From assembly GCA_964187785.1 (NCBI GenBank), contig OZ076409.1, positions 52,888,001 to 52,952,000 on the forward strand: a stretch of DNA of 64,000 nt, given 5' to 3'. Source of the DNA: Amphiscolops sp. MND2022. Lineage: Eukaryota. Positions 1 to 44,600 of this stretch are shown in pieces; position 1 is the first letter of the stretch, and every line of letters starts with the position of its first letter. A program made the translations under genes and the position numbers. Below the pieces are notes generated by a model, which saw nothing but the letters and a program-made list of their open reading frames with translations, searched no databases and was not told where the DNA came from.

Positions 1-20
1 AGTTCTACATAACAACGAAT

Positions 21-2544
21 TTGGTTGAAGAATTCACAAGCCTCAGTAAACACCTCGAAAACTCATGTCAATTAGCTCTGAGGCAACCCCTCAAAGACAA
101 GCAACTCAGAGTTATGTCAGATGCAAGTTTCACAGCAGCAGGATATGCTATAATAGAAGAAGACGATCCAAACCAAAAGCTACAATCCAAACGCAAAACG
201 TATGCGCCTATAGCGTTTGGATCCAAAACTTTCAACCCAACACAAACAAAAATGTCAAAATATGCGAAAGAATTCCTTTCCATATATTTCACCTTTGTCG
301 AATTTGGACACCTCATGTGGGGTAGTACATTCCCCGTCATAGTGTTTACAGATAACAGATCAGTGACACGATTTTTTCAAGCAAAACTTATCCCTCCATT
401 ACTCTGGAATGCATGCGATTATGTTTTGCAAAACAGTTTCGTAATTGCCCATGTTGCTGGATCTATGAACACCGCAGCGGACTTCCTCTCACGAACGGAA
501 GTCAACCCCATCGAAAAACTTGAAATGAACATTCGCAACGATATACAAACTAAAGCGATCGAAGTCAACATACAATCGACAGGCATCGTCGAAGAAAAAC
601 AAATCTACATTCTTCCCGATGATGAAATTGAAGAAAACCAAATCTGGCAAGAAAAACTTAATGTACGCAATCAAGCTCAAAACGAAACACACAATGAACC
701 AAAAAACAGTGTAACAGAACTCCAAATTTTCCATAAACCAACATCTGGCTCAAATACCTGCTCAGAAGGCCACTTCAAAGACTATGCCAGAATCAGACTT
801 GAACAAAACAATGACATAATCCTCAGAAACCTTAGAGCTAAACTGGAAGGCAATCCCTTCGATGAAAATGACCTAGCATCCGACTACAGATATCAACACT
901 ACCTGCAAAATATCACCCGAATTGAAATCAAACAAGAAGTCCTAACACGACGATATCACACTAACACAGGAACAACATCACACTACCAAATTTTACTACC
1001 AGTACAGCTTTTGGAGGAACTCCTCCAAGCGTTACATGGACATAACTCAAACCACCCTGGTATCACTAAAATGATTCAGGAAGTTCGGCAAAAACATTAC
1101 TACCCATGTATTGCCAAATACATCAAAAAATGGGTTAGTAACTGCCAAATCTGCATCCAGACGAAAAAAATAAACAACGACCTCCTCCTCAAGACCGAAT
1201 TGCTGAATTGCACTGAATGGGACCTAGGTCCTGAAGACATCCTACAAATGGACATCCTCCCTAACCTCCCTAGTGGAGGGTACGATCACATTATCACGGC
1301 AATAGATGTTTTTTCACGATACTTGTTTGCCTATCCAGTAACACGCATTACTGCCACTGCAGTAGCACTAGTCATAATGGACATTCTCTGCAAGCACACA
1401 TACTTGCCAACAACCCTAATCACCGATTTGGGCACTCAATTCAACGCCCAAGTAACTCACGAAGTAGCCGCAATTTTGGAAATTGAACTCAAACACGCGA
1501 CAATGAAACACGCCAAAACAATTGGAATCCTAGAAAGGACACATGCTTCCGTAAAAACACAACTCAAAGCGGCAACGGGAGATTTCCGACACAACTGGCA
1601 CAAATTTCTCCCATTAGCAGTACTAAATCATAACACAACCTACCACGCATCATTAGGTTGTGAATCTTTACGAGTTTTTCATGGGAGAATACCCCATAAT
1701 ATACTCGATTACAAACTCGAATACAACCCTAACCCAAAATATCTACCACAAACAGATGTAGCAGAAGAGGTACAGCGACGCATGAAGGTACTTCTTGACC
1801 AAACGAAAAAGAATATAATGCAATTCTATCTCAAATACAAAGCCTATTACGATAGGAAAGCAAAAGCTTCCCCACTCGAAACGACGGACTACTGCTACAT
1901 ATTGAACCCGAAAGCAGATACTCAAGCAACAAAAATACCCTTTCGCGAATTCAGATGGCAAGGGCCATACAAAGTCGAAAAAGTGCTTCCAAACAATAAC
2001 TACATAGTTAGAAGGCTTGGAACCAATAGAACCCAATTGTTACACCGAATTCGTCTACGAAAATTTTCGTCCGAGAAACAGACTGGCAAAACGATGATCA
2101 GATGCCCATAGAGCATGATGACCTATACGCACAATCTTGGAATACAAACTTTGGTCCCAACCCGTTTGAAGACAACCCCCCAGAGTATTCACAAGATGTA
2201 GAAGATATTGAATACTTACCAACTACAGAACCCGAACATAACCACCCCCCCCCTCCCGCGAATTTGCACAAAATAGTGGGGGGAGCCCAGTGGAACAGAC
2301 CACTGAACCAGATCAAAATCACGAAATTCATACAGATGAAAACCCACAACAAACTAGTGAAGATGACCAAAATACCCAAAAATTGCAAAAAGAACCAAAT
2401 AATCCATCAGATAACAATACCCAAAAAACCCCAGAAAACTCCCAAAATACCCCATTGCAAGAAGAACCCATAAATACCCGTGGTGAAAAATATAACTTAC
2501 GTCCTAACCCCAACCCAAACTACTCTGATACAAATAGATATTAA
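21..2544 (+). pseudogene. pol: Gypsy pol C-terminal part (RNase H, HHCC zinc-binding, DDE integrase, GPY/F), tail frameshifted
   Basis: Motifs SDASF, FTDNRS and NTAADFLSR (RNase H); H..HPGITKM..CQIC; MDILP/TDLGTQF/ERTH; WQGPYKV. The tail continues in ORFs 2102..2473 and 2290..2544 and ends KYNLRPNPNPNY, like the end of B pol. Confidence 0.93.
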
Positions 2545-2773: not shown

Positions 2774-5700
2774 TCAGTTTTTCTTGCACTTTAATGATGT
2801 GGAACTGTTTTTCTTCAACCCTCTTTCTTGATCGGTACTCGAACATCGATTGAGTGCAACATTGATACGGCCCAAAGAAAGATCTGGCGACGGAGAGCTG
2901 TTCACGCTACTCGTACGGCTTACACTGGGTGTGGTAGTAGTGGAAGATACTACGGGTCTCTCAAGTCGTAACACAGCTTTACGGTACCCCATCTCCATCT
3001 TGCCCTGCAATGAAACACGACGGGAATTGCTCCCTTTCAAAAGGTTCCAGATTGAGAACTTTTTATCAGAGAGTAATTCATCTCCTCGTCACAAAAGACG
3101 AAAGACATGACTTATGACTTTTGGGTCACGAAACAAGCTGGAAACGTGTGGTACAGTCTGAAAGGAGACCTGAAGGCTAACCACACATGACTGAAACAGG
3201 CTTTTATCTGAATTGAGATCTGGAACGGGTACATCAAATCAGGGAGGCACGTCCACTACTGGTGCAAGAGTTAGACACGAAAGCCTGAAGAGCCGCAATC
3301 ATTCAGGACGACACTGAATTTAATAGTGGGTTACCACAAATTGTAACCAGTCATCGTACTCCGGAGCAGGATCTGAACGTAATTTTGTCACAAATGATCG
3401 GTACTGGCTAACCACCCGCACCTTGTCATTGGAAGAAAACAACACAGCAGAGAAAAAAATGAGATGATAATTTTTAAAGGCTGTTGTATACACATCTTCA
3501 TGACTCTCGAGAACCACTGGGGAGTCGAAAGCAGACAACCCTCTGAGCAAATTGGATCTGACAACGTCGTAATTCATCAAAGTTTTACAAAATGCTTTGC
3601 AAAAATTAATAGACTGGTCGACAAACTTGCCGGGTCTGGGCAGTTTACTGGCTAAAACCAATTGATGAAAGTTTTCATTGAGAACAAAGTCATCACTGCT
3701 TTTGAATGGAATGGTGGATGAATCTAGGTCGAGATTGAGAAAAACATCCCAATCGGAACTGCTTCCCAGGATATGATCTGGCAGGATGTGTTGCAGTTGA
3801 GAATAAGTAAAGACTGCAAATTGATTGAAGAAACGAAATCCTCCATCGAGCCGCCTTTGAGTTTCAGAAAAGGCTGAATTGTCTGAAACAAATTAAAACG
3901 GTCAAAAGCAGCAAGCTAACATGTATTAGAGAACAACTTCAACTATGAATGCAACAAACTGTGAACATCCAATTCGGATCGTGAATGAAATTGCAATCCA
4001 AATCCACGTTTATACACCATTATGCGGAATTTAATTAGGCACACATCATAATTCATCATTTTAAAATGGGCATTATGCGGCACTGTGCGGATCGAGGTGT
4101 GACGACTATACGTCACTATGCGGATTGAGGTGTGACGATTATACGTCACTATGCGGACCTGAGTTTGATGACTATGCGTCATCATGCGGATTGAAGTGTG
4201 ATGATCATGCGTCACTATGCGGAACAAGCATGATGAACAATACCCCTCCATGCGAACTACGAAGAACAATCTAGACGACAGTATGCGTTTTGAGAACAGA
4301 CGATTATGCAGTATAATACGGAAAAGTGTACATTGTTACAGGGAAGAGTTTATTGCATTAACGAATGATAAGTTACGCTTTCCTTTAACAGGAAAAGGGA
4401 AATACCCGAGAATAAAGGACGGTTGTCCTAGTAGTGAGTCTAAGGAACCGACGTAGATTTTACAAAGAACAAAATCACAAGAAGAATTTGACGCTGTGCG
4501 AAACTGTTGGAATACAAAACATAGAAGTGAAAATAGAAGACACTAACAGTGATCAAGGTCGCACCGAATAATGAAAAGCCTGGCCAAGTAGGCTGTGTCA
4601 AGACGAAAGGACTCGTCGAGGGTATTTGGCTAAAAGAAACATAATAATAAGCAAGTGAAAGTTAGTTATGCCGGAAATAACAAAAGGAAGACTTACTTCT
4701 CTCATATGGAAACGGTATACGGGCAGCCTGGCGACGTGATTCAGGTGATCTCGTACTTGTTCCCAGTTGTTGGACAAAGTCTCGATGAGGCTTGAAGCTT
4801 CATCAAGGGTGTACTCCAATCGAAGGACGCACTAGAAAAAAAGGAAAATCTAGATGACGAATGGGCTAGCATAGAAAATATGGGAAAATACAAAACCTGG
4901 TGTAACAAGGTCAAATTCTGTAGCCAGTCCCGATCTAAGGCAGTTCTGAGTTTCATCAGCAAAAAGTCCAGGATAGTCCTGAAGTCGTGTCTTTCAATAA
5001 TTTGGACTGTGGGGGTGGCTAAACTGCGCTCAAATTCAGCAGGTCCATAGGAAGTTACAACTGAAGGAGGTTTGGCCCCGGGCAAAGTAGAAGTAAGACA
5101 TTCGTTGAGTTTATCTCCAAAGCCAATGAGAGACACACAGGTTGGAGCTGTCTCGAACAAACTCAAGAACGAAGCTACAAGAGAGAGAATTTTTCGTGGT
5201 AAGAGCATGCCACGAGGAGCCCCACCAATACAGTCCCGGTGTAGAACGTTCTCTGACCAGAAACAAAGGATCACGAAAGTAAAGGTAGTTGAATGCTGTA
5301 TGGCCAATGAATAGTGTCCTGAGGAAGATATGGCTCTGACGCAATATTCCATTAACTCTCGGAACATGTAGACTAGAAGGCCCTCAAATTAGAGAACCTA
5401 TTAACACCCCTGCATTTAAATGTGAAGTTGGGGATAGAAAGATGAGTTATGAAACTTACAAAAAGACGTTGCTGATTACAATTCTGAACAGACAAGTGGT
5501 CACTTGAGGTCAATCGTGTCAGTTCATCATACATTCCGGTTAAACTTGACACACTTCCTCCATATCTGAGTCCGAACTCCAAAATACTGATCTGAGACAG
5601 TATTTTCTCAGTGGGACTAGTTGCGGCACTGAAATCCGGGACTGATTCTTGCTCAACAAGTGGGCGGTATGAGTCAAGTTGTGGGGGGATCGGGTAAGTA

Positions 5701-7153
5701 TCTTTTGCCTTCTTCTTGGCATTCTGGAGAGCCGCACTTAGCAATTCCTTCTCGTCTTTGTCAGAGTCGCATTCCGGGTACCTCCATGCGGACACGTTGT
5801 TCTCTGACTAGATGTGAGTCGGAGCGATAATGAGAAATGAGCTCCAGACTACCGCGGCTCATAAGAGAAAGCTCAAACCGACACACACGACACCACCACT
5901 TGTAGGGCGATTTCTCCTTGTTCAATGGTCACGTGGCAGAGAACTTTAGAACTGGGTGTCGCTTGAACATGCTCCCGGTAAGGGAGTATTTGGGCCTACG
6001 ACGTTTGCCTCGAGAAGATGTGGCATGTTGGTCATTTCCTTCTAAAATGACTTCTGCACCCATGCTTCCTCCTACATCCTCCTGACTAGAGGTAGTAACC
6101 ATAGCTGTAGGAGTGAGGTCGTCTACCATGGTGAGACTCAGAGGTTGATTGATATCGATGCCTTCCCCACTAATGAGAGTTTGAGGAATTCGACCAAGTA
6201 CACTTGGCAAAACAAGAACTTCCTGTCGAGTGATGCTAAGATTAGGAAGAGTATTGGTCATCAAAGCATCTTCATTTGAGGCAATATTGAAAGAGTCAGG
6301 TCCTCCGTTTTCACCATGCCCAGAAGTTGCACCAGAAGCAATGGACGTTGGAATTGCAGAAGCCACTGTCTCATCTGGGTCCTGCTGAATAAAATGGCTA
6401 AATCCTGGAAGAGAGTTGTGTGGTACGCCGGAATAATCCTGGCTAGCGAAGACTTCCTGTGCAAATTCACTGAATGGTCGGTCCATGGTAGGTGAGTCAG
6501 ACACAACTCCAGGTGTGTCTTTTTTAGAAGAAGATTGAAGGTTTTCTTTTTGTCGAACCGTTTTGTCGCTTCCTTTCTCGAGCTTTTGGGAAACTGTGGG
6601 GTACTCGGGCTATCGCAGCCCTCCGCCTCATCAATTTGGAGAGGGCGACTGCTGGGGGTCTCTACAGCACTAGAATGTCCTAATGTCCGTGGGGTAGCGA
6701 CTTGCAATGGAGCTTAAACTTTATCTGGTGAGCTAGACGGCGTCACTTGGGCAGATTCTCGTTCGACTGAAAACAATAAAATATTTCCTTAAGAGAAGTA
6801 GAACATATTCCAGCAAGCGGAAATCGTTTTGTTATTTCCCGAAACCGGACGCGGGGACAGGAAATGACGAAGACAGCGGAAGCCGCTTAGAAATCAGAAT
6901 CAGAAACGTTTCGAAAAAGTTGAATTTGGTATTGGAAATTGTTTCTAGCCATATTCACCCTTTTTGCGGGCCAGGCCAGCCTTTGCAAAAAACCCCAAAA
7001 TTCAAACAAATCAAATCCAGAAGGAAATAAGTTGGACTTACGGGAAGGCTCAACTGGCAAGTCAGTGTTCCAGAAGTCATCCTGGTAAAGGGGGCCTCGT
7101 TCTTTTCGAGATCTCCGTTTGCTGAAGATATCTGACCCAGAGTTCGGTTTCAT
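2774..7153 (-). pseudogene. Element A antisense spliced accessory gene: C2H2 zinc finger plus hAT-transposase-like body, disrupted by stops and frameshifts
   Basis: Inferred exons ~6810-7153 (donor uncertain), 5460-6766, 4697-5397, 4548-4629 and 2774-3882, with GT-AG introns 5398-5459, 4630-4696 and 3883-4547. WWCRVC...HYRSDSH finger at about 5812-5892. Collinear with the B gene at 36319-40351. Confidence 0.8.
4081..4230. repeat. About 4.5 copies of a 33-bp tandem unit (CACTATGCGGATTGAGGTGTGACGATTATACGT-like) inside an intron of the antisense gene
   Basis: Units start at 4081, 4114, 4147, 4180 and 4213. Confidence 0.9.
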
Positions 7154-7570
7154 ATCGGGGTACAGAAGAAAACGACAAAGAGTTTTGACAGAGCGAAGGG
7201 GGACAAATGAGAATCAGAACAAGGAAGTGAGTCACAACAAAATGCTAAGTAAATGGATAGCTGGGCTCGGGTGAAGAAGTTACGACGAAAATTGAATCTG
7301 TAAAGACTGAAGACTGTACTATAAATGCTGATTTGACTGAATTTTAAAGAGGTTAACACGATGATACAACAAGGCGTGGCGTAAAAGGAAGGTAGAAAGC
7401 AAATGAAACAAATTGCGCTAATGTGTGAAAGAAATACTGGAATCTGATTGGATGATTAAATGTCAATTACGTCTGCCAGCGTGATTGATTGACTCGCCAT
7501 CACTCTGGATGCGAGAATATACACGAATACAGTACAGCGGAGTGAATTGGAACGATTTACTACGCGAAAG

Positions 7571-7720
7571 TATGCGGCATTATGCGGATAGTCTAGCGAT
7601 GAACATGCGGCAGTATGCCGAAGTGCAGAGACGAGTATGCGGCAGTATGCGGAATTACTAACTGAAGACTATGCGGCAGTATGCGGAACGAGTAGTGACG
7701 TATACGCGGCATCCTGCGGT
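7571..7720. repeat. Array of TATGCGGCAGTATGCGG dimers with about 33-bp period, between the divergent accessory genes of A
   Basis: Five paired TATGCGG-like motifs read directly. Confidence 0.85.
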
Positions 7721-8557
7721 TTTCGCTGTATGTGTTCGCAGAAATGGACCAATGCTAATATTGAGTGAATGAATCATTATTACATAACAAACTAAAGAAA
7801 CTAGGTGTTATTTGTCACAAATGGACGTCTGATGTTATTATTATGCATTGAATGTATGCATTTGTTGCTCTTTCGAACAAGATTTAATGTGTCATTGGGA
7901 TATCAATATGATACCTCAGTTAGAAACTCTTTTTATGTAATTCTATCCTTGATTTCATTCGTTTCATTAAAATTATTTGAAAAAACAACCATACGCACTT
8001 TTCAAGTGCGGGACTAAAACAAAACAAAATGCTTCTTGCAGTTGAAGTCTGTTTAAAACAGGATTCAACTAATGTGAACCCTCTTTTAATGATTTACATT
8101 TCTCTTTGCATCCAGTCATGCAAATTCGGATAAATATATTTTAGTTTCAGTAAATTGGCAAATCTTGTAAACCACATTTTCATTTCTTTTACTTTGATGT
8201 TAGGTTAAATTTGTTTATGTATCATTTGAAACTCCAATGAAACAGTGTGAAGAACGCTGAAGTGAGGAAATAAGGTGATGAAGAAAGGTGGAACACCTAA
8301 TATGGAATTTGTTTATGGCTTGATGCCGTTAAACCTCGTGATCAGAAACCCCGCAAAACCCTTATAAGGGAATGAAGAAGATCAGAGCATGACGAGCGAT
8401 GTTTTTCGCGGGTTTTTTACCCCTAAATAAGGGAGATTTCAAAAATCCCTCATCATATGGTCTTTGTAAAACTACAATACAGTCGCTTGAAAAACAAAAC
8501 TTCTTTTCCTTCAGCAGAACAAAACTTTGTCTAATATTTTCTCAACATTCTAAAGAA

Positions 8558-9625
8558 ATGAGCAACCTGCAATTTGTCCTGGAGGAAGACTCCCTCTATT
8601 CTCCAATATCCCTGGATGTGATAGACATTTCCAGCAACTCTGGAGACGAATTCTTGGTTGAACGCGGAAATGTGACACAGCTAGATGAACGATTTAGGGT
8701 CAATCAAATAACCCAAGATGCTATGACCACTTTCATGGGGGCAGCAACAGCGATGTTTTTCCCGTCAAGCAACGACCCCATCTTACAAGGCAACGTCATA
8801 GACACTACTGGAACTGGCATTGAGCAGGAACTAATGGAACTAATTGAGGAGAGCAGGATTGTTAGCCCTGTTTCGCTCACGTCCTTTGTTGACAGTGAGT
8901 TTGAGGAGGCCAACGAATCACCAGAGGAGCTTAGAGGAGACGGCCCCGACATTATGATAGTGAACAGTTACGGCCGCCCAACTGCAGCAATCCTTCCTAC
9001 TCCTCGTACGAACATTGTATAACCAGGAGGTGTTAAAGTGGTACCACCCACTTACCCACAAAACTACAATCCAGAAGCGTCAGCATTTCGCCCACAACAT
9101 AGAAATGCACATAATGACCAGGATTCCTCAGTAGGTCAAGTGTACAATATGGAGACCGCAGACACGCATGTTATGCCAACATTTGGAGGGGTGTCTGACA
9201 ATCTCGCAACTGCCAACATGACCCCTCTGATAATCCATTTGCCACCCAGAGGAGGACCTGACACCCTACAGGAACATAACCTCCCAATCTACCCAGGTGT
9301 GCAAGGGGGCTTTCCTTTTCACGTGGTACATAGTCCGAATGTGCTGTTCATCCCAATCGACGTTAGACGAAACTTCAGGCTTTTTCCAACAGTGATGCCG
9401 AATGTAGCTGGACACTGCGACCAATGTGGAAAGACTTATGATCAAGTTGCCCTCGAGACTTTGGGAAATTATCTAGCAACCACCACCTATGAAGGAGAGA
9501 CAGTAAGAGATCGTGGTGTCCGGTCACGAGCCTTCATTGACGGGTTCGAAGCTATCCTGTTCATCTTCAAAAGAGCGGGACTGTCTCAGCCTGTCAGCTG
9601 TGCTGGGTCCGAAGTGCAGCAGTGA
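8558..9625 (+). pseudogene. Element A sense accessory ORF (about 355 codons, one TAA at 9020-9022); acidic N-terminus with VIDISS, and a CxxC (HCDQC); ends inside the 3' LTR
   Basis: ORFs 8399..9022 and 9038..9625 are in the same frame, with an ATG at 8558. Confidence 0.7.
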
Positions 9626-11113
9626 ATGAAGAAGAACAGAAAGAGCTCTCACCCCGATGATTAAAACTGACACTAACCACCCAATTCCTTCTTGAAAACT
9701 TGCATAAACATTTTAATTGGGGGTTATTTATTTGATTTGTCATTTTGAAAGATGCTAAACAAATATCTTGAACAACCCTTTTTGTAATAAGTTTGCTCTA
9801 TGCATCAAAGGAGAGATAAAATGCATTAAAATTTGAGACAATTTACCTAGAAAGATCATTGCATGACTAATAGATTACGTAATGATATCGTTTTTTGAAC
9901 TCAACACCATTAAATGAACATTTGTGCTGATGACTATGCGTCATTATACGTTTTGAGCTTTGTTGAATAATCACAAACATGCCTTTTTTATAATTGAACT
10001 ATGCGGCATCCTACAGCCCGATGCCTGATGATTACTCGTCACTATGCGGACTACCACTATGCGGTACCCCGCGGTTTGATAAGTAACGTATACTCGTCAG
10101 TATGCGTTTTTAGCATGATAACCATTCAAAATGAGATATAACGTTATACATTTCAATTATTTTTCCGAGTACGCGCTTGACAGTCTCCAACGCAGTTTTC
10201 CAGGGTTTTTTTGGACCTATTCATCAGTTTTGAATGTGATATAAATATTCTGACGTAATGATGATGCTATCCTATTTTTGCCTCCCAGGCCAGCGTGATT
10301 CCTCTAAAAAGGAGTGTCATGCTCCCAATTTTTTTAAGTAAATTAACTTTAGCATAGATATTCATACCAATTTTGACCCTCACTGTGATCAGTTGCTATA
10401 ATCATCACTCTAACTAAACTGTAAAAGCAGTTTTTTCCAACATTAGCACCGTTTCTTTGAAATACCTTTTGGTATTTGGAATACTTCAAGACAATTCAAA
10501 TTCTTCCCCAACAACCAAAATACACCTTTTCGCTTGAGCAAGATGGGAAATAAGAGAAACAGAAGGTCCAGGAGACTGGCAACACCATCTCCTGACAGGG
10601 AATTGAGCGTAACACAAGTAGAAACACCTAATCCAGGTAATGTGACTTTAACTAATTCTAATGTTAATGTTCAAGAAGGTTTAGGTGAAAACAGCTCTTT
10701 AAATCAATTAACTGAACCCAGTTTACTCAACAGTGAAGTTCAAGTATGGACCCAAATAATGGAACAGAAGAATGATAGCAAAATCGAGAAAATGAGAGAA
10801 GAAATGGATAGTGAACTTGAGGCGATTTTGAGAGAAGTTAAATCAAATAAAACTGCATCAACAATGACAAACCCAAGGTCAGATTTCAACGAAATGCAAG
10901 ATTCACAACCTTTGGGATCCAAAACAGCCAAGTCTATAGGAGTTCACGCATCTAATAACGAAAACTCAGATTCTGAAAAAGACGATTTTCCTCTCAGAGC
11001 TTCTAAAATGAAAGACCTAAAGCATCCTGCGAAACCGCTATTCCGGAGCGAATCTGATGTAGATGCAACTATACATTCAGACGAAGAGTCTGATATAGAA
11101 GAGGATTATCACA
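9582..11113 (+). repeat. 3' LTR of element A (about 1.5 kb), containing TATGCG repeats and the gag N-terminal ORF from ATG 10543
   Basis: A PPT-like AAAAGAGCGGGAC precedes TGTCTCAG at 9582, and the LTR ends TTATCACA. The start is inferred by analogy to B because no 5' LTR is available. Confidence 0.65.
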
Positions 11114-12251
11114 TCAACATTTTACTATGCGGCATCCTACAGCCCGATGCCTGATGATTACTCGTCACTATGCGGACTACCACTATGCGGTACCCCGCGG
11201 TTTGATAAGTAACGTATACTCGTCAGTATGCGTTTTTAGCATGATAACCATTCAAAATGAGATATAACGTTATACATTTCAATTATTTTTCCGAGTACGC
11301 GCTTGACAGTCTCCAACGCAGTTTTCCAGGGTTTTATTGGACCTATTCATCAGTTTTGAATGTGATATAAATATTCTGACGTAATGATGATGCTATCCTA
11401 TTTTTGCCTCACAGGCCAGCGTGATTCCTCTAAAAAGGAGTGTCATGCTCCCAATTTTTTTAAGTAAATTAACTTTAGCATAGATATTCATACCAATTTT
11501 GACCCTCACTGTGATCAGTTGCTATAATCATCACTCTAACTAAACTGTAAAAGCAGTTTTTTCCAACATTAGCACCGTTTCTTTGAAATACCTTTTGGTA
11601 TTTGGAATACTTCAAGACAATTCAAATTCTTCCCCAACAACCAAAATACACCTTTTCGCTTGAGCAAGATGGGAAATAAGAGAAACAGAAGGTCCAGGAG
11701 ACTGGCAACACCATCTCCTGACAGGGAATTGAGCGTAACACAAGTAGAAACACCTAATCCAGGTAATGAGACTTTAACTAATTCTAATGTTAATGTTCAA
11801 GAAGGTTTAGGTGAAAACAGCTCTTTAAATCAATTAACTGAACCCAGTTTACTCAACAGTGATGTTCAAGTATGGACCCAAATAATGGAACAGAAGAATG
11901 ATAGCAAAATCGAGAAAATGAGAGAAGAAATGGATAGTGAACTTGAGGCGATTTTGAGAGAAGTTAAATCAAATAAAACTGCATCAACAATGACAAACCC
12001 AAGGTCAGATTTTAACGAAATGCAAGATTCACAACCTTTGGGATCCAAAACAGCCAAGTCTATAGGAGTTCACGCATCTAATAACGAAAACTCAGATTCT
12101 GAAAATGACGATTTTCCTCTCAGAGCTTCTAAAATGAAAGACCTAAAGCATCCTGCGAAACCGCTATTCCGGAGCGAATCTGATGTAGATGCAACTATAC
12201 ATTCAGACGAAGAGTCTGATATAGAAGAGGATTATCACATCAACATTTTAC
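10000..12251. repeat. Tandem duplication, 1126-bp unit (10000-11125 / 11126-12251)
   Basis: ORFs 10534 and 11660 are near-identical. The junction ...CATTTTAC|TATGCGGCATCC has 2-bp AC microhomology. Confidence 0.95.
10543..11113 (+). CDS. gag: gag N-terminal segment encoded in the LTR (MGNKRNRRSRR...EEDYH), truncated at the LTR end; copies at 11669-12239 and 14095-14665
   Basis: Basic N-terminus and a coiled segment. The frame meets the LTR end as codon+A, exactly as in B, where gag continues into the PBS. Confidence 0.6.
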
Positions 12252-12559
12252 GTTGGGCCATACGGGAACAGCATACGTTTGGGCCCTGCTCAAGTCTCAA
12301 AAATAGCAAGAGTATTTTGAAGCGTCATAGATTCTCTTTCGAATAAATTCTCAATTTCAAAGTACCAAAATAAGCCAAAGACCTTTTTGAAGGGGAGGGT
12401 GCATTATTTCCAATCATCCGCCTCCTCTTCGGTAATACACAATTTAATTCGGATATAATGTCAAAATTCGGATATAGTGCAATATTTTTGAGCCTCTGCT
12501 TCTTCTTTAGCAAAACACAATTTATTTTCATATATACCGTCAAAAGTATAAAAGTTTGA

Positions 12560-20700: not shown

Positions 20701-21490
20701 CTACTTTCATATTAACCTCATCGTGAAAAAAATTATCCGGTAACAAAAAACAAACCGAAGACACAGTCAAAAAAGCTGATATTGAATTTATGCTGGACCT
20801 GTAGAGCCTGATATCCAGAACTGCAGTTGATCCCGAACTAACGATAGTGGGAGCAAGCATGAGACGGTAAAACAGAGAAACAACCCGCAACGAATACAGG
20901 TCGGTATTCGACAAACACTCAATAAGATGGGGTTTCGTATTTACGAACGACCAAATTGTAGTTCCGGTGGATCACCGAAGAAGGCTACTAGACATCCTTT
21001 ATTTCGGTCATGCCGGGACCACGAAGATGCTGGCCGAAACAAAAATTTTCTAGTGGCCGGAAATTAACCGGGACACATAAAACAAAATCAAGGAATTGTC
21101 GCATCAGGTAAAAGTTTAAAATATCAATTACCGAGTAATCACTACGGGAAATTGAAAAAGTTATCCGAACCGGGCCAAGAAATACAAATTGATTTTACCG
21201 AAAAATTACATAATAAGATAAAAGACTATATACAAATTTTGATAGCGGTAGACCGATTTAGCAAATGGCCAACGGTAAAACCGTGTAAAACCGCAGAAAC
21301 AAAAAAGTTATAAATTTCTTAACAACAAAATTTGAATTTACTCGGAATACCCGATAAGAAAATCCGATAACGGAGGAGCTTTTGCATTGGAAGAATACAA
21401 AAAATTCTGCAAAAACCGAAATATAAAAATTGAATACTGCACACCCCGGTGACATACGGGAAACGGGACGGTAGAAAGAGCGATACAAAC
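17753..21490. repeat. Internal tandem duplication in C, 1869-bp unit (17753-19621 / 19622-21490)
   Basis: Identical ORF translations at offset 1869, including the lesions. Confidence 0.95.
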
Positions 21491-32600: not shown

Positions 32601-35600
32601 GATGAAGAAAACGATCGAAATGATCAAACAAAATACCTACGAAAAGAAAAACAAGAAAAACACAATACCAGAAGCCTTGATTACAGCAAAAGAAAAACAA
32701 ATAATCAAAGAGGAACCGATACAAAGGATGGAAAAATACGGTACCAGGCCGAAAACAAGAATAACAGGAACCCGACTGTTACGACTATTTACCGGTGTTG
32801 TTTTAGATTTAGTCGCAGTGTGAATTTTGACGGGGGTAGACGTTCTTGCTACGGAGACATTCTCTGGTTCAGAGTCCGAGTCTTGAGCATTCATGTAGAC
32901 AGTCTGTTTTTTGTTTAAGGGCGCTATCAGTTTTAACATTTCCTTCTGGTTTTCCGCAAGTATTTTGGTGAGATCAGACATAATCTCTTTTCTTAATGAT
33001 GTTTTTATCTCAGCCAAGTTTTCTGGTTCTATCCTAGGGATCTTGCTAGAACTAGCTACAAGAGTTTCAGGCGGAAAGTTTTCGGTTATGGAGGTTTCAA
33101 AATCGCCAGAGACCAATTCTGCTACAGCCTTCCTTTTCTGACTTCTAGTTGTCATTTTGATTCAGAGGGAGGGAGAGAGTATCTTTGGAAAGGTTAAATT
33201 CTTCAAAGATTCGTTTTCGTTATAATAACGGAACTGAACTGATTGTTATAAGTCAAGTTGGAAAATTAACTGATTCACATGTATGTATTACATATTTATA
33301 CCTTCTCAGCATCATTTGTTCCTCACCTAAAAATTCCTAGGTATCACAAAAATCGGGTTTGTTCAACAAAAAGCGCTAATGATTCATATTATTTCAGTCC
33401 TGCGTCATAATATCAGGCATCAAAATTCCTAGTTACGTCAGCGTTCCGTAAAATTTGTTGAAGTCATTTTTGTTCAGGCGGTTCATTTCCTGTTTGTGCT
33501 TCAAAATTGCGGTAAAATAGAAGTCTAGTTTTCATTTTCATCGACGCAAGCACGCCGGCGTGATCAATTAGTCAGATTCCTAACTTGGAAGTTGAAATTC
33601 GAAGTAAAAGAATGACACTCAAAAAAATAGCAACGGAACTGTGACGGAATGTGAATATTTTATGGCCAAAGATACTTGGAAAACCAAAATGAAGAACAAA
33701 GTGATGCTGAGAAGTCTTTAGGAAACGAATAGCTTGTGTAAACGCAAATTGTTACGAACTTTACATGTATTGGGAACTCAAAACAGAACATTTGATTTTA
33801 GCATCAAGTAAATGCCACGGAAACAGTCCTTTTATCAAGACTTGTTTAGCAACTAACACACTGAGTATTCAGACTTACTGGTCTAAGAAGGCGTATAAAA
33901 ATACATCATAGCACTCAGAAGCAGATTGAGCAAAGGTAGAAAAGGAATAGGAGAGGTTATTGGAATGATTATCACTGCATCATATCAAAATTGGTACAAA
34001 TTTCAAAACAACACGAACATTACGTTCATTTCATAATCCTATCTTACAGTACAACTATTCTTTACGTAAGCTTAATCTTAAGATTCCCTAAGGTGTATAA
34101 ATTCAGAAAAGTTCTTCCAAAAGATTCATTCATTACGAAGTTTCCTAGTTGCAATTTCTTAAGTTGCTCCGTAAATGCTCCGTACGTGTTATGGTTACTT
34201 ATGGTAGAGCGGTGGAATACAATTTTAAAATCCGCTCCGTAAGTGCTCCGTACGTATTAAGATTGCTTATAGCTGAGCAGCAGTAGCAAGCGGAGTGGAA
34301 ACGGAGAGCGTAGGCGAATTCATTCTCTTCGCTTAGCTAGCAAGCGTTGCTAGGGGCAACCAAGCTTAATTCTACTGGTACCGGCTCGGATAATTCTGCC
34401 AACAAGCGACGCTATTGGTCCGTAAAAAAAGAAACGCCCGTCACCAGCTTAGTTGAGTGACGCTGTCATAACGTTGTAAACATTTACTTAAGATCACTTG
34501 ACTGCGGTATTAAGTAGATATTTAACAACTACTTTAATATTGGAATACATTTCCACTCTATTTTTGTATGTTCTTCCATTTTAGATCTCATGGGCTCCGT
34601 TGGGATCTCGGAGTTGAATGTTGTTTCTGTGTTTCATTTTAGTGTGGGGCGCCAAAATGATCCCGTTTGCAAAATTATTTAGTATTTAGATTGGAATGGA
34701 AAACTCAGAAGATAAAACCGGAAATAAAACGGCGTTGCGTGTGAAAACATTAGGCCGGAAGTTTTAGCTAGTTTAAAATCATTTCTGAAAATCTTCCGTA
34801 ACGTTTACGTTGAATTCCGTATTTGGAGAATTATTCGCGCTTATTTAATTGTACTGTAAGTAGAATTTTGATTTGATTAGTTTAATAAAGTTTAAAAGTA
34901 TTTACTGTGCCCTTGTCCATGTCCTCTGCCGAATCCCGGTATTCAATAGCAGCAAGTAAAATTACGACCGGGAGCGGGTCGTGACAGGGCCCCTCTTGAT
35001 GAGAGTGACAGGGGTAGAGCGTGGCAGTGCGGGATTTCTTTATTGTCACGGGGGGACGACCATTGTACCTTCTTGATTGGAGGGGGCCACGACCTCTTCC
35101 CGCCTTCATGTCTCTAATTTTCCTCTCTTCTTCGTCTAGTTCACGGGCTTCCTTCTCCAATCGTTCCACTTCCTCCGGACAGCATTCGGGGGGTCTAATT
35201 ATGATATTAGGGCGCAGATTTTCTTTTGCGTGTAGCCCGCGTCCACGGCCTAAGGATGCGAGGTAATTTCTGTCCTCCAAATCTAGGCTGTACAGGGCTT
35301 CCAATTCCGCTAGAGAAGGCTCATCAGGTCATTTAATTTTCCCGAGTTCGGCATTCTTTCATTCCCCATAACAGGGATATTTTCCGTTCTTTTTAGAGCA
35401 GGGGTACGCTTTATTGGGGGGGGGGTAAGCGCTGCGGTGAGTCTGGCTCTTCATAATAGTCCGTGTCAGAGTCGGCTGGCGGCAGATCGAACGTGACTTT
35501 TCCGGTTCTCCTTTTCTTTTTGGGTGTCGGTGCCGTTTCGGGCGACTCGGAGGTGGAAACCATTTGTGCATCGCTTCCGCGATAAACTTCGACGGAAGAA

Positions 35601-38600
35601 TCGCTCAAGTATCCTACCATATTGAGAGGCAGCGTTTTTATCGGTGTACTGGTCTTATTGGCTTCTTCATCTGACGAGATGTCGATAACTAGCGAATAGT
35701 TATTCATTTTAGTAGGAGAGAATACTGAGTACTATTTCGGAAAGGTTGCAGGTAGTTTGTTAGTGAGGATTTCTTGTAACGCTTCAGAAAATTGAGAAAA
35801 TTTTAAGCTGGTCAAGCTTCTGCTGAAATTGGACGACAAGTGAACGTTTTAAATTATTTCCTTTCGGAAATTTCATCGAACTTCTATTGGTCGATTTTCC
35901 GTTTTCGTTCCGGTTCGTCACGAGTTAAAGGAAACGAGTTCTTTCTTGCTGCGTTATGATTGGTCGAAATACTTGAGGGAAACTTCTAATTTTAGTTTCC
36001 GTCCTCTTTTCGGTTAATGGCGTAATGACGTCACAGAATTACATCTGTAGTCCGTGATCTTTTAATAATTTCCCAAGTTCTTCTTGACATTTCTTGGTGG
36101 ATTTTTATCCACTGTAAGGTCTTTGGAAACGTTTTGTTCCGTCTATGCCATAATAGGCTTTTATTGGAGTTGAAGATAGGGTGATTTTCATTTATGTAGG
36201 AATGATGTTATTAATTTCCTCCCAATTAGTTGCGTTTACGTAACGTAATTCTTCTTCTTTGTGATTTTCGTTCTTTTTTTTTAAATTGCTGTGGGCATCT
36301 TTGCTGTCGTTTCTTTCTATGGATGACGAAACTGCTCCGCTCCAAGGCACCGTCACCGGATTTGTCAGTGGCAATGAAACCAATTTTTGTTATACTGACG
36401 ATGACGTGATCTTTTCGGAGGTGGAGGCAGTGGTTACTTCTTCAGGTTGGTAAAATCTTTCTGACTTTCATGGGTAATTGGACTGTTGTTTTGGTGATCA
36501 GCCTTTTCAGTCTTACCCGAATACCTGACGCGTCAAACCAGATCTTGATTTTCAGTAACTCAACCTGGCGCTTCAACTGCGGTTGTTTCCGTAGCCACTG
36601 CGGGAGTTCTTTCGACAGAGGCTACTGTTCTGCCATCAGTTTCTACTATCTTGTCTTCTAAGCCTTCTAGTGCTGTTAACGAAATGTTAACCACTGTATT
36701 GACTAGCGCTGAGCCCGACGATTCATTTCCAGTCGACTCTTCTCCTGTCATTGTTGGTCCGAGTACGCGAGTTGTTGCTGCAAGTAGCGATAGTGAGTCT
36801 CAAGAAGGTGAGACAGATCCCCCGCCAATAGAAAAACCCGTTGATAGATTCGTTTTTGATGGTATATTTCTGGTATGTGGGCGGGGTGTACGAAAATTAT
36901 TTTTGTTGTTGTAGATATGAGGGATGCTGAGACGTATGGACCTTCCAACATTTGTGTGACGCCATCGAAACGGGCAAAGAAGGTTGTTATCGCTCCGCCA
37001 TCGCCTCCTCCCTTGGTGCATGCTTCTACTGGTTGGCAAAGTTAGTTCTAATATTGTTTTTATCTTTCGTTTCATTCTTTGAATTGGGGAGAGTGTTAGT
37101 TGCCCATTGGTTTGGTTTGTTTGGGGATGTCCTATTTTTTGGTACTCGTTTTCATTGGGTGTTGATGTTGTGTAGGTCACGATGATGATCAGTTGTATGG
37201 TGTCGGCGGTGTGACGTTGAGTCCCCAGGATGTGATGCGATTGGGTCAGCAACTTGTGGAAGAGGTGACGGAAAGTGCTACGCTGGTTATTCAAAACGGT
37301 TAGCGTTTGCGTTTTCCCTGTAATTCGGGTATTACTTTGTTGTTTGGTGAGGGTTTTCGTTCATTTTCAGTGTAGTGTGTATAATCTTTATCCCCTTCGT
37401 GTCTTGTTTGTAGAGTTGTAACAGTTCAGTGGGAAGGTAGAAAAACGTCTGGCCAAGCGGACAGTGAAGACATACGGGAATCGCAACACGTTGCATCGTC
37501 GTATGTTGAGTCGACATCCTGCTTTTCCTGATTTCGTGACAGGCTCCACGACTGGTGAGGGAACTCACTTCCACTGTCGGGTATGCAAGCGTGATGTGGC
37601 CATGAAAGCTCAGGGCTCTGGAGAGTTTAGCAGACATTTCCGTTCTGATGCTCACTGGTTTAAGGACGTTACTTATCGCGTCCATATGGGTCTTCAGGTG
37701 CTCAACAGGTTGATGGAGCCGATGGAACTGTCAGCAAGTCAACTGGCAGACTATAAGTCTCGACCATTTTGTGATCTGAGCGGGGAGTATCCGTTCCCTG
37801 AAGATCTATTGCCCAAGCATTCAAAAGCGGAGTCAAACGTGCCCTACATGACCTTGGTTTCTTGTTTTTGCAAATTCTTGCGGAATGGTTGTGATCTTGA
37901 TTATCTTCGTCGTCTGTGGGGCCACTTCCGAGCAACATTGGGCGACCGAGAACCTTGCTTTCCTTTACGATGGAGCCGTTCGGAGACCGTGGTGAGTTGG
38001 TTTGGGTATTGTTATTGTTTATTTCCGTCATGTATCCGGGTGAGAGAAAACAGAAAGGGATGGGGGAATGTCTGTTGTAGTTGTTTTGAAAGTAGGGTCT
38101 CGTTTGTGTTTTAGTCATTCCTTTGTCGGGGGCTGGCTCCGCGAGTTCTTCGTCTGATGTTGAGTGACGTCAAATCTTTTAAAGAGTACGGGATGCAGTT
38201 TGAGAAGTCTGGGTGCATAGAACGTTGCTATGTTCTTTGTTAGGATGGATTGAATTTAAAGAAGATTTGTGTGGGAGATCAGTCCTTGGATCAAAAAATG
38301 CCCGAACCCGAGTTGCTCCCATTGGCACGTGTAGCGAGCTGCCTAGAGGGACAGCAATTACCGGTGTCAGTTCTTGGCGCTAGCCCTTCCCTCATTCGCA
38401 TGTTAGACGCGAACAGGACGGATGATCGGCGGTTTCTGTCATGGCAGTCGTTTGATGAGGAGGTGTTTCTCCATTGTTTCCGTCAGTCTCATCAGGACAT
38501 TTTTGGAATGATTGAAGTGACGACTGCATTGGAGTATGTGATTCATCGATTGAAAGGGGCTTTGTATGAGGATTGGACAGAAGACAGGCCTCTTCTTCGA

Positions 38601-41600
38601 TCGTGTATACGGGACGGCTCCGTTGCATTCTGCAATCTTCGAGAGGTCCTGGGCGATTTAATCGAACTGTGGCCTTCCATACGTCCTTACATTCGCTACA
38701 CAGGACATCCTCATTTTAAGAGTGTTGCTGATAGGGTGAGTACCGTCGTATTATTTGTTTATTTCGGTCTTGTGTCATTCCTTTGTTCTCTCCTGTGCTC
38801 TGCTGTGGTATATATGATCTTGGAATGATGGTATAATTTATCCATTTTAGCTGCGCGGCACAGACTTCGAGTTAATCTCCGATAGTCTCATTGTCTATCG
38901 TTTCGGCTTCCTTCGACTGCTTTTAGACTCCTGTAAGTATGGTGATCTTTCGTTATAATTGTTCTCTTTCGACTGTTTCTGATTGTGGTAGTGTATTGGC
39001 TGATGTTTCTTGTCGTTGTGGATATGCTATTGTATCTGGTTTCTATTGGCTGTTTCGTTTTGATCAAGGATTCTGCTTCTTTTCATTAGTTCATGTGTTT
39101 AGATTACTTCAATTTTGAGAGATTGCGTCAGTGCCGGAGAGATTACGGGTTTCATGGTTACGGTGAGGTCTGCAACTTCGTTTACTGTCTGCTGATGCGA
39201 ACCCGTAAGCTGTCTGATTTGCCTGGTATCCATGAGTGGGAAAGTTATATGGATATTTCGAAACTTTCTTATTTCAACGCTATTTCCATGGAGGAATTCC
39301 TGATGGACAGTGATTTTGGTCGCGAGCTGGTCACTGTCAAGACGGGTGAGATGCGGGAATTCCGCGTTAAATGTCGTGAGTGTATTGATCGGCTCGTGTC
39401 TTTGATCCTGACTAGTACAGCTGTGACTTCTGGCGTTTCGCGAGGACTTTATGCTTTCTGTCCGGAGATTATGTTGGGCGGCGACGATCACCACATTTTC
39501 GAGTTGTTTGGCTCTCTTTGTGATTTGTTCAGATCCTGCCACGTGATGTCTTCGGACGGCTTGAATGCTGCTGTTGCTGAGTTCAAGAGCTATGTGATAG
39601 AGAAACGCAGGCATTACGAGGATGCGACATGTGCTGCGAGTGAGATTCCTGACGTGGTTCAGTTTCTGTTGCGGGATTTTGCCTTCCAGTCTCGGACTCA
39701 TGTATTTCGATTGTTAAAAATATGTTGTCTGGTGGTTGGAGTGCCAAAAAGTAACCTTCCTGCAGTTACTATTGATTTGGGTGGTAGCGCGCTGAGTCCG
39801 GCAGTGGTTCAGGATTGTGTATTGATAGTGCAGTCTCACATCGTCAGTCCGAGTTTCAATCCTCGATTGTTCTTTTCAGCTTCGTTGCTTGTTGCAGTCC
39901 GGGAAGCTATTGCAGAGTCAGGCATTTTCTTCAGAGTTGCCGATTTGATGTTTGGAAAGATTTTTGCTCTGGCGATATGGAGTCTTTTGTTGGGCGTTAT
40001 CGATCTTTGTATAAGAAGTATTTAATGGGGCGACAAAGGGAGTACGACACTTTCTATGTGGAAAGCAACAAGGCGAATCGGCGTTCTCGCGAGAGTCAGT
40101 GTTCAAGTTCAACCGAGGCCGGAAGTGCTACAAATTCTGTTGTCGGTTCCAAGAAGGCATCGTCAAAGTCTGGGAAAGTAAATGCGTCTACTACTCGTTC
40201 ATCAGCAAAAGTTGTGAGTAAGGAAGATAGAACTGTTGCGAAAAAGAGTGGTGGTGGCAGTGTGTCTAGAAGGTCAAAGAAAGATAAGGGCAGTGCTTCT
40301 GATGATTCCGATGCAGTCCACAAGTTGAAGAAGACATCTTCTAAGAATTAGTGGATAACTGATGCTGATTTGATTTCTTGATGAATTATATCTTTTGTTA
40401 TACTTGGTATTTGTATTCTTTGTTTTATGATTTGATTGATTTCTACAAGTCACATCAGTCATTCGTTATAGTTACGTAGTTTTAGTAGATTGCAAAAATT
40501 GACGTAGTCATTCCGGTTCGGTTTGATATGCTGATTTTTGTCTAGTCTTGAGCTGATCGTAGTTCTCCCGTAGTGACTGAGTCGAGGATTCTGAAGTCAG
40601 GATTTACGTTAGGTCGTGGATTAGGTCTCAAATTATATCGCCCTACTTTCCTAGGATTATATCCAATGACTATAGGCGGTAGTTCGGGTGTTTTGGGAGG
40701 GCTTTCTATAGGTGGCGGTGTAAAAATATAGGGGTTGTCGCTGACGTCCAAGTTAAATGACGTTATGTTGTCGGAGGGTGTTTTCCCTTCTGCAGAGTTT
40801 TCATTTGTGGCTGTTTGAGCCACGTCATTTTCCGTTATATCTTCGCTTGTGGTTGTTTTAACCACGTCATTTTCCGCTGTAATTTCATTTGTGATTGTTT
40901 TAACCACATCATTTTCCGCTGTAATTTCGTCGTTTTCTGTTGTGTCTGTGATTTCTGCAACTGTGGCTTCTTCGGTGGTGTTTTCCGTATTGTTTCCGAA
41001 CAGAACTCCTCCGAATTCGGTTTCCCAAGCTTGCGCGTACCAATCATTGTGGGTTGTTTTAACCTCTGGATCTGGAAGGTAATCTTCCCTTCTGACTGTT
41101 ACGTCAGGTACTCGCTGATTGGGAGCATATAGCCTTAGGCGAATTCTATGGAGGGTTTGAGTGTACCTAGTTCCTGTGCGACGTACGACGTAGTTATTGT
41201 TCGAAAGTACTTTGATTACTATGTAGGGTCCAGTCCAAATACAATCTTTAAAGGCAAATTTCATTGACTGGTTGTCTGCCTTTGGATTGAGGACGTAGCA
41301 GTAGTCGTTGACCTTGAGCGGTGTAGTTGTTGCTTTCTTGTCATAGTACTGTTTGTGTTTGAGGTAAGACTGCATTAGGTTCTCTTTGGCAGCTTGGTGT
41401 ATTTCGGCTATTTGTTTCTGTAATTGGTCCGTTAATTCTTCGTTGCTATCTTTTTCCCAGTTAGGTTTCAATCCAAGTTTTATGTCCAAAATGTTGTACG
41501 GGATGCGTCCGTGAAACACTGTTGTAGGTTCACAACCTAGGCTTTCATGGTAGCTTGTATTGTAATTCATGACTGCAATCTGGACGTATTTGTGCCACAT

Positions 41601-44600
41601 GGAACGTCGTTCTCCCGTTGATATCTTTAAAGAGGTTTCCAAAGAGGCATGGGTCCTTTCTAGGATGCCAATTGTTTGGGCGTGTTTCGTCGATGCGTGG
41701 TTTATCCGTATATCCAGTGTTTGTGCTATTTGGTTGACGACTTCTGACCTGAATTGTGATCCTTTGTCCGTTAGAATGACGGTCGGTAGGTAGCAGTGTC
41801 GTGTCATGACGTCTATTATGCATCGTGCGACTGTTTTTGCTGTCATATCCTGAGTCGGATAAGCGAAAAGGTAACGCGAAAAAACATCCATCATCGTTAT
41901 GATGTGTTGGTATCCATTTGAGGAAGGTAAGTTTGGTAGGATGTCCACTTCTAGGCAATCTTCTGGTCCCATTGTGAATTCAGTGTTGCTTAGCATTTTG
42001 GGACGTATCTGTCTCGTGTCTATTCTTTTATTGGCGATGCAATCCTGACAACTGGTTACCCAAGCTCTGATTTTTCGTGCAAGACCCGGGAAGTAGTATT
42101 TCGCTCTGCATTCTTGTATCATTTTGGTGATTCCTGGGTGTTTATTTGTTTTCCCATGTAGAGTGGACAGGAGTTCTGGGACTAGGTGTTTTGGAATTAT
42201 AATTTGGTTATGTGTGACTGTTCCGTCTTCTCCATAATACTTTCGCATCAGAACTCCATCTTTCATTATGATTCTTTCTTCGTGGCGTAGTAGGTTTCGT
42301 CCTCGTGGTTCAGTTTTGAGAAGGTGCTTGTCATATTCTTCGTGTGAGATCCGTTGTTTCAGTGCTTTGAGGAGGGGATCTGCATCTTGTTCGTTTCTGA
42401 TCCGTGCATTTTCCTTAATTGCACAAAAAGAGTAGACTGCGGAGTTGAGTGGTATCTTGATGACTTCGGTTACCTTTGTTGATAGTTCTCTTTCATGTTC
42501 ATCTAGGGCACGTCGTTTGCTGAATGCCTTTCGGGCAAAAATTTCTTGTTCAGATTCATCTTCTTCATCTGGTAGGAAGAAAAGTTGTTCCTCGTCAGCT
42601 ACATCTGATGATTGTAGGTTAACTTCAATTGGGGACGTTAGGATGTCGTTCCGTAGTTTAAGTTGTACCTTTTCTTTCGGTGTAAGTTCAAGTCTTGAGA
42701 GAAAATCTGCTGCTGTGTTTTGGGAGCCTGCTACGTGCATGATCCGGAATTTGAACTGAAGTACGTAGTCGCAAGCATTCCACAGTGCAGGTGGTGTTGT
42801 TTTCGTCTGAAAGAATCTGGTTACTGAGCGGTTGTCCGTTAAGACCAGAGTCGGAATTGTTGTTTCCCATAGTATATGGCTGTATTCAAGGAAGGCGTGG
42901 TAGATTGCTAAGAATTCCTTGCAGTAAATGGACATTTTCAGTTGTGCAGGTGAAAAAACTCGTGATCCGAACGCTACTGGGGCGAAGGTTTTCCGTTTGG
43001 AGAGTATTTTGCGTTCGTCGTTCTCCTCGATCATGAGGGCGTAGCCTGATGCACGAAAGCTTGCATCCGTCATTAGAACGTACTGTTTTCCTGCTATGGG
43101 CTGTCTGAGTGCAAGTCCACAAGCTTCCGCTAAACTGACGTTAATTTCCTTAAAGTTATCGACAAGTTCTTCTGAAATTCTGATTTTGGTTTCTGCTTTG
43201 AGAAGTTCGTACATGCCGATGAGTTTTTCTGACAAGCGCGGTATGTAGTTGCGGTAGTAGTTAACAAAGCCAATGTATTTTTGAACTTGTTTTTTGGATT
43301 TGGGGAAACGGACTTTGGTGAAGAAATTTTTGACTTTTTGATCTTGCGGGGCTACGCCGTCGGGGGTGATGGTTCGGCCAAGGAATTCGATTTGGGTTAC
43401 TCCAAAATGGCATTTTTCGATGGTTAGTTTTAATCCTGCTTTTCTAATGCATTTGAAGACTGCTCTGATGTTCTGTATGAGCTGTTCCGTTGTGTTTGCG
43501 GCAATGCCAATGTCATCTACGTTATGTGCACATTGGTCGGCTTTGATACCTGAGTCCAGATACTCTCGCATGAAGCTCGAAAAAGCTGATAGGGCTCTGC
43601 TTAGTCCTTGTGCCAGGCGACGGTAGGCGAACGTCCTACTAGCAAAATTAAAAGCAAGTAACTCTACTGACCTTTGATCTGCCATTTGAAGGCAGTGATA
43701 CGCCTGGGAGCCGTCAAGCTTGCAGAACAGTTTTTTCCCTGCTAGGTGTTGTGCCGCATCTGAGAGGGTGCTGACAGGGTGGTTGTTGTTGAAGTAGTCA
43801 TCTGCTATAAGTGCGTTGATTTTGCGCAGATCCACCAGTAGTCTCAGTTTGCCGTTGGGTTTCCGTTGTGCAAATATGGGACTGGCATACTTGGAGAAGG
43901 GGAGTGTCGTGATGATTCCGTATCGATGCATGAGGGCCAGTTCCACAGTCAGGTCTTCTTTGAGGTTGATTGGGACGGGTAGGCTCTGTGTGTAGACTGG
44001 TTTGTCATCTTGTGGTGTCAGGCTGACTTTGAATTGTGTGTTCATCCCTATGTCTAGCCGGTATCGAGCGAAGATGTCGTTGAATTCGACAATGGTGTCC
44101 TCGAGGTTTTCACGGTCTTTGTTCGCAATCTGTGAATCTGTCCATTTCAACATGGAAAGAAATTTGTTTCGAGACTCTTCGTTTTCGGTTGGGTCAAGTT
44201 TTTCTAGCTCGGCAAGGTCTCGCAATTCTTTCAAGATTCGCATTTGTATGGGCGAATGTTCCTGTTCGTTGCCGGGGTGTTCTGGGGTCGGAAACCAGAA
44301 TTTCTCTTCATTGTCGTCGGGCCGCTCTACTTGCATTAGTGCATTGATGTACGTGACCGCATCGACATGGTCAGTGAGGAGGTTTAGGGCGGCTATGTCA
44401 ACTGGGCGGCTCATCTTCGTTTCTTCGGGTTTCAGGATTTGCAGTTCTGCCATTTTGTTATTGGTGGCTATTGTGTATGGGAAATCCGTAGTGTTGGCGA
44501 TTTTTATTGGTATCTTTTTGTCTCTGGCTGTTGTAATTGCTGGAGCTACTATTACCTTCGCGCATTCGTCGAATTGTGGTAGGGGTTGTATAGTGCCCGT

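Follow-up and report, generated by a model that had tools for sequence, protein, structure and literature searches.

We have analysed a 64,000-nt stretch of the genome of Amphiscolops sp. MND2022 (GCA_964187785.1, contig OZ076409.1, positions 52,888,001 to 52,952,000; hereafter the window), in which two Ty3/gypsy long terminal repeat (LTR) retrotransposons, elements A and B, each carry a multi-exon gene on the strand opposite to gag and pol. Gene A lies on the minus strand of the window and gene B on the plus strand; the antisense gene has about 1050 codons, with five introns in A and seven in B, and the two versions were compared with each other and with relatives elsewhere in the genome. Both window copies are dead, with stops and frameshifts in each. 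Their exons and introns are listed in the order of transcription, introns common to A and B being called shared.

Gene A
7042..7153 (-): exon 1, ATG at 7153, phase-1 donor at 7041; layout matched by eye in relative L044
5460..6766 (-): exon 2, low-complexity N-terminus, then a C-x2-C-x16-H-x5-H finger at about 5892-5779; broken by stops and frameshifts in the window copy
5383..5459 (-): shared intron 1, 77 nt, phase 0, acceptor corrected
4897..5382 (-): exon 3, 486 nt, predicted to encode RNase H-like strands belonging to the hAT fold
4832..4896 (-): A-only intron, 65 nt, phase 0
4697..4831 (-): exon 4, 135 nt
4630..4696 (-): shared intron 2, 67 nt, phase 0
4548..4629 (-): 82-nt exon
3883..4547 (-): shared intron 3, 665 nt, phase 1, containing a 33-nt tandem array
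2774..3882 (-): last exon, with premature stops from 3322 on in the window copy

Gene B
36319..37991 (+): exons 1-5 (36319-36445, 36556-36807, 36915-37040, 37176-37298, 37414-37991), with four intervening introns of phase 1; zinc finger encoded at about 37575-37688; the window copy has a stop at 37419
36446..36555 (+): intron 1, an unusually conserved block with GACGCGTCA
37992..38114 (+): shared intron 1, 123 nt, phase 0
38115..38735 (+): 621-nt exon, one stop at 38241 in the window copy
38736..38850 (+): shared intron 2, 115 nt, phase 0
38851..38932 (+): 82-nt exon
38933..39102 (+): shared intron 3, 170 nt, phase 1
39103..40351 (+): last exon, frameshift near 39960 in the window copy

Homology and common layout of the antisense genes

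Our profile comparisons and the exon-intron layout show, at the level of sequence, that A and B are distant members of one intron-containing gene family. With HHalign, whose E-values here refer to a single pair, the last-exon profiles of A and B matched at 98.7% over 288 columns with 23% identity, the middle-exon profiles at 94.2% over 146 gap-free columns and the finger-exon profiles at 96.6% over 147 columns. The initial annotation had taken the layout as strong evidence of ancient common descent and had named a pairwise profile comparison among the checks; the exon profiles do match, and three separate exons now speak for common descent. The pairing of NLLRGLSAFDS with GVSRGLYAFCP downstream of the last intron was recovered in the HHalign alignment. 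Taken alone, the 27-aa products of the 82-nt exons match weakly, with a score reached by 19 of 2000 shuffles; across the family the mean BLOSUM score of this exon is +0.29 when aligned at offset 0, whereas ten other offsets give -0.62 to -1.25. The two genes are, as had been stated, without visible likeness in DNA: the 82-nt exons are 56% identical against 53% for shuffled sequence, and no blastn match between A and B exceeds 27 nt.

We find the three shared introns where they had been placed, with phases 0, 0 and 1 in both genes, and the exon of 82 nt in both A (4629-4548) and B (38851-38932). Two details of gene A had to be revised. The first acceptor that had been proposed (VLxFEGL, 5398) brings in an in-frame stop, and only 2 of the 20 A copies have AG there; at the acceptor 15 nt downstream (exon start 5382, GLLVY) AG is present in 19 of 20. 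Nor are the shared introns simply the last three of A, which has an extra 65-nt phase-0 intron (4896-4832; GT in 19/20 copies, AG in 20/20) without counterpart in B. With both changes the coding span of A from the first to the second shared intron becomes 486 + 135 = 621 nt, the length of the single 621-nt exon of B, so that the corrections strengthen the case that had been made. The donors of A are GTAAGT at 5459 and 4696 and GTTAGT at 4547, and the acceptor at 3883 is TTTCAG, with a split Tyr codon. An intron of gene B around 38241 was also considered and is ruled out by relatives that read through in frame.

Relatives were collected by searching the 1.07-Gb genome with four queries, which gave 3,707 to 11,117 first-look candidates each (these are not copy numbers), of which 51-150 per query were scored. 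From them 75 ten-kb stretches were picked across the identity range: 20 of A, 20 of B, 15 of a clade C and 20 further B-like stretches (E). The splice survey covered 62 A, B and E stretches including the two window copies, of which 60 could be projected; L043 and L153 are without upstream exons. The 82-nt exon projects in all 60 copies and the 621-nt span is kept in 17/20 A, 16/21 B and 18/19 E copies; boundaries in relatives were projected from tblastn exon matches, so equal length is partly built in, and the presence of GT and AG at the projected positions is the independent test. At the two introns around the 82-nt exon the expected GT or AG was found at 239 of 240 sites (60 copies), and at the first shared intron GT was found in 54 and AG in 57 of 60 copies. 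The four 5' phase-1 introns of B have GT/AG in most alignable B copies. By contrast with these fixed points, the last shared intron varies from 66 to 774 nt, intron interiors compared between subfamilies are at the identity of shuffled controls or up to about 10 points above it, and synonymous sites are saturated between subfamilies that still keep the splice dinucleotides. The further claim of maintained splicing thus stands as regards the splice dinucleotides kept across subfamilies, by which splicing of the gene at conserved sites is strongly implied rather than observed in transcripts.

Carrier elements, selection and cassette exchange

Element B, 16.3 kb long, is a complete Ty3/gypsy retrotransposon; in a Pfam scan its domain order is gag followed by a pol with protease, reverse transcriptase (RT), RNase H and integrase. 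Its LTRs are identical at 2189 of 2211 columns (99.0%) and have TG...CA ends; a primer-binding-site-like TGG follows the 5' LTR, and a 5-bp target duplication is present. Gene B is found on the opposite strand, after pol and before the 3' LTR; gene A has the same arrangement behind a broken pol at the window edge, which cuts element A, and the ends of that element are not defined. Positions 1491-2003 of element A match the integrase of element B at 65% in DNA.

46861..49071 (-): element B 5' LTR, with the primer-binding-site-like TGG next to it
45830..47245 (-): element B gag, starting within the 5' LTR
40542..45872 (-): element B pol, an open frame of 1776 aa with protease, RT, RNase H and integrase
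34885..35707 (-): element B third open reading frame (ORF3), sense strand, head-to-head with gene B; frameshifted here, 270 aa in two close relatives
32777..34986 (-): element B 3' LTR, with TG...CA ends as read along the element and the 5-bp target duplication beyond it
1..2473 (+): 3' portion of the broken Ty3/gypsy pol of element A, with RNase H, integrase and a C-terminal tail
8393..9625 (+): sense-strand frames of element A that lie between gene A and the 3' LTR, without Pfam match
9998..11125 (+): element A candidate 3' LTR, tandemly repeated, ends not defined

In 75 of the 75 stretches, which were located through the antisense gene and so represent gene-bearing copies, this gene lies tail-to-tail with pol, between pol and the 3' LTR, in the same place and orientation across three RT lineages. 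Head-to-head with the antisense gene, and before the 3' LTR, the examined copies of B, C and E have an ORF of 210-280 aa in sense orientation. Its products are acidic and of low complexity in B, C and E (L064, L071, L079, L122-L125, L134), and its pieces in the window (34885-35707; 8393-9625) have no Pfam match. The interval separating the two genes may work as a bidirectional promoter and, in several B/E copies, includes TGACGTCA repeats.

Purifying selection on the encoded protein is shown by comparison of coding sequences, taken as gap-free exons one by one. Before this comparison, copies that differed in length or had two or more stops were removed. For A, 13 pairs from 17 copies were unsaturated, with a median dN/dS of 0.03-0.06; for B/E, 188 pairs from 33 copies gave a median of 0.08-0.27. 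Synonymous sites were saturated in 123/136 A pairs and 339/528 B/E pairs; finding copies by protein search flatters close pairs and cannot create saturated dS. In the cassette tree, which like all our trees is a quick tree, A is about 3 changes per site away from B/E, C and a clade without close copy in this genome; relatives are therefore present in other assemblies.

RT is near-constant within each lineage, but the antisense cassette is not. Between L064 and L073 both flanks are 94-97% identical and the gene 59-72%; between L050 and L056 identity across flank, gene and flank is 95%, 50-62% and 97-99%; and L071 shares with L079 and L148 a pol that is 94-100% identical over most of its length and a gene that is 46-65% identical. 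Such near-identical backbones with divergent genes show, on sequence comparison, that old cassettes have been swapped whole between backbones. Clade C is without the three 3' introns and apparently keeps 5' ones (by eye). RT trees disagree on the root, and an AU test does not reject the intron-bearing lineages as monophyletic (p 0.41); the midpoint root of the cassette tree and the apparent 5' introns make intron loss in C likelier than C never having had them. If so, the pattern would be the one expected from recombination of a spliced copy back into the element.

Some other features of the window and its relatives concern the carriers. In both elements the gag frame opens inside the LTR and crosses the primer-binding site (45830-47245; 10447-11154), and residues 399-478 of the element B pol (43.4-44.7 kb), between protease and RT, have a weak dUTPase-like Pfam match below the cut-off (E 0.14). 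Element B itself sits, with its 5-bp duplication, in the gag of a more distant gypsy element (31909-32776, 49072-52346) with an RT 24% identical; a related broken copy, with a 1869-nt tandem duplication, lies at about 16000-22900. The LTR and 3' region of A are tandemly duplicated over 9008-14963 (98-99% identity, units of 1126 and 2426 nt). Clade-C genes at G000:C10:2575926, 2589565 and 2603204 are spaced by 13,639 nt, which suggests that whole elements are arrayed in tandem. At 60563-60777 there is a tandem repeat of 29 nt that includes strong palindromes.

The predicted protein and its candidate binding sites

What does the antisense gene encode? We predict a protein with a zinc finger and a hAT-transposase fold from which the DDE cutting residues are missing. 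The four finger ligands are conserved in all clades, without a zf-BED Pfam match. The structural model of the clade-C protein is well folded, with an RNase H-like core and a large helical insertion as in the Hermes fold; the predicted hAT fold spans 400 residues, and the structural alignment extends to Hermes residue 609. By sequence the likeness does not appear: Pfam scans of exons, fragments and 34 full-length relatives gave nothing above cut-off, including the C-terminal dimerisation domain PF05699, and a search of the PDB gave no match. In a protein atlas the clade-C protein had leads at 0.81-0.85, several of them hAT-related and all under the 0.9 mark, and the last exon of B matched only TBC domains at 0.76. 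A search for longer spliced models in a protein collection found only one read-through frame, which is weak evidence, and in a metagenome scan none of 449 pattern matches was confirmed.

As regards the DDE triad, no acidic column is common to all clades at 233-245, 293-303 or 648-675 (P0231 numbering; positions inferred), and the residue at the first of these sites is Q in 15/16 A proteins, E in 22/29 B/E proteins and never acidic in 14 C proteins. The same genome has many hAT transposases whose frames keep DDE motifs; our sequence profiles did not match these frames, and a DUF4371 search of the genome found no match anywhere, its controls being likewise unmatched, so that this search says nothing either way. 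Neither terminal inverted repeats nor an 8-bp duplication was found in 10 of 10 copies, where the longest inverted match was 9-13 nt, near the shuffle level. These results bear on the idea that the gene is simply a nested hAT DNA transposon, active or only lately dead, with the retroelement as its vehicle. The fold, and nested insertions being common in the window, would suit it; the constant place and orientation in 75/75 stretches of three RT lineages, the missing DDE residues and transposon ends, and saturated dS with low dN largely refute it and leave it barely credible.

Two kinds of non-coding sequence are candidate sites for binding of the protein. Tandem arrays of 33 nt with TATGCGG, on one strand, are present in the last intron of A (4021-4216), upstream of A (7571-7680) and at the start of the LTR-like repeat (10000-10058); of 11 last introns of A that were scanned, 10 have them, as do upstream regions, and they are shared among A subfamilies. 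B and C have no such arrays. Intron 1 of gene B (36446-36555) is 86-100% conserved in 24 of 79 stretches while the flanking exons diverge, and its GACGCGTCA recurs in the matching intron 1 of C and E. This block lies at the edge of the L064/L073 cassette exchange. Considered as a structured RNA it gave no Rfam match and folding z-scores of -1.1 to +1.0, like shuffles, which makes a DNA site more likely.

Proposed role and known systems

We propose that a hAT transposase gene was captured, in reverse orientation, by an ancestor of these elements, with loss of the DNA-transposon ends and of the catalytic residues. The antisense gene would have its own promoter near the 3' LTR, and its transcript would be spliced. 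The RNA that a retroelement reverse transcribes is the gag-pol strand. On it, the four introns at the 3' end of A have CT...AC at their borders, so that they could not be spliced out of the copied RNA and would survive retrotransposition. Taken jointly, we consider these steps very probable. A finger combined with a dead transposase scaffold is what DNA-binding regulators derived from transposases consist of; overall, we think it probable that the A/B family is an antisense hAT-fold gene acting as a DNA-binding regulator of its own element.

How the protein would act is put forward with more reserve. It may bind cis sites of its own element type and help their transcription or their escape from silencing, as VANC and TnpA do, a suggestion that we regard as tentative though quite plausible; if it regulates its own element, a role as activator or anti-silencer seems the most likely. 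The fullest version, in which an LTR element would have domesticated a dead hAT as its own sequence-specific activator or anti-silencer, with dozens of ancient, interchangeable cassettes on shared gag-pol backbones, as the first VANC/TnpA-like system in an LTR retrotransposon, is possible and somewhat doubtful.

With the same origin and layout, the protein might instead tether the pre-integration complex to chosen chromatin, or repress copy number by binding the element. A finger with a transposase scaffold suits tethering to DNA, and nuclear accessory roles have been suggested for antisense ORFs in the available part of PMC7264820. Integrase and RT, however, stay nearly unchanged across replacements of the cassette by versions whose DNA differs by 30-50%, which argues against tight integrase contact, and the present data do not tell repression from activation; we consider this alternative unlikely. 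More improbable is a protein directed at other elements or the host, as a dominant-negative poison of hATs or rival retroelements or as a blocker of a host silencing factor, its diversity being kept by conflict. The many hAT transposases with DDE motifs in the genome and the many old cassette lineages on near-identical backbones would fit, but the lack of sequence likeness to host hAT frames makes mixed oligomers doubtful, and cassette divergence is mostly synonymous, unlike rapid protein change. That the antisense RNA itself is functional, through double-stranded or small RNAs, with an incidental reading frame, is a route named for antisense transcripts in the same part of PMC7264820, and it is very hard to reconcile with the signs of protein-level selection: dN/dS is far below 1, exons keep their lengths and phases, the finger ligands do not vary and the model folds well.

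Domesticated, inactive hAT derivatives are known among host genes as ZBED, ZNF862 and FAM200. Our protein resembles hAT transposases (Hermes, PDB 8edg/4d1q/2bw3) in its predicted fold, its N-terminal C2H2 finger, which may be BED-like, and a conserved Trp roughly where the TRW motif would be; it differs in having no DDE triad, terminal inverted repeats or Pfam hAT family and in being carried by a retrotransposon. The gene belongs to a very abundant family, with thousands of first-look candidates per query, and offers a natural case of introns retained by antisense position in a retroelement, with one clade that is without the three 3' introns.

Additional antisense ORFs between pol and the 3' LTR have been described in maize Grande (gene23), rice RIRE2, Silene Retand and PvRetro13, as given in the accessible portion of PMC7264820. 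These have in common with the present gene their place, orientation, presence in most copies, conservation and a function that is not known; they are not reported there as hAT-like, whereas the present gene has five to seven introns and a second, sense ORF beside it. Retand ORF4 has a transposase_28 domain, PF04195 (PMC7264820, same portion), which our Pfam scans did not find in the antisense gene. The brtn gene of Botrytis Boty-like gypsy elements (Zhao et al. 2011; cited in PMC8365987 and PMC7264820) is likewise an extra antisense gene in a Ty3/gypsy element, in a retroelement lineage that is likely different. The layout is thus already known from plants and Boty; of the version predicted here to be hAT-derived and dead, with swapped cassettes, no earlier description in an LTR element was found in the literature covered, subscription journals and supplements being outside its scope. 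The same portion of PMC7264820 states the origin of the plant antisense ORFs to be unknown, without similarity to other elements, and leaves the origin and role of LTR-retrotransposon antisense accessory genes open; here an origin can be traced, in which a class II transposase would have become a gene carried by a class I element.

The closest parallels in the role that we propose are VANC of VANDAL elements, which binds tandem repeats of its own family (PMC5735166, part available), and TnpA of Spm, which arose from a transposase, transposases being activators of their own elements (Sasaki et al., bioRxiv 10.64898/2026.08.24.746577, part available). Both act in plant DNA transposons and have been tested by experiment, whereas the present carrier is an LTR retrotransposon; in the main text of the latter source, as available, neither 'retrotransposon' nor 'LTR' occurs as a whole word. 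Common to the three are an accessory protein encoded by the element, family-specific variants and tandem repeats in non-coding parts, which in our case are found in A only. TnpA is moreover a transposase that lost catalysis, as we predict for the origin of the protein encoded by the antisense gene.
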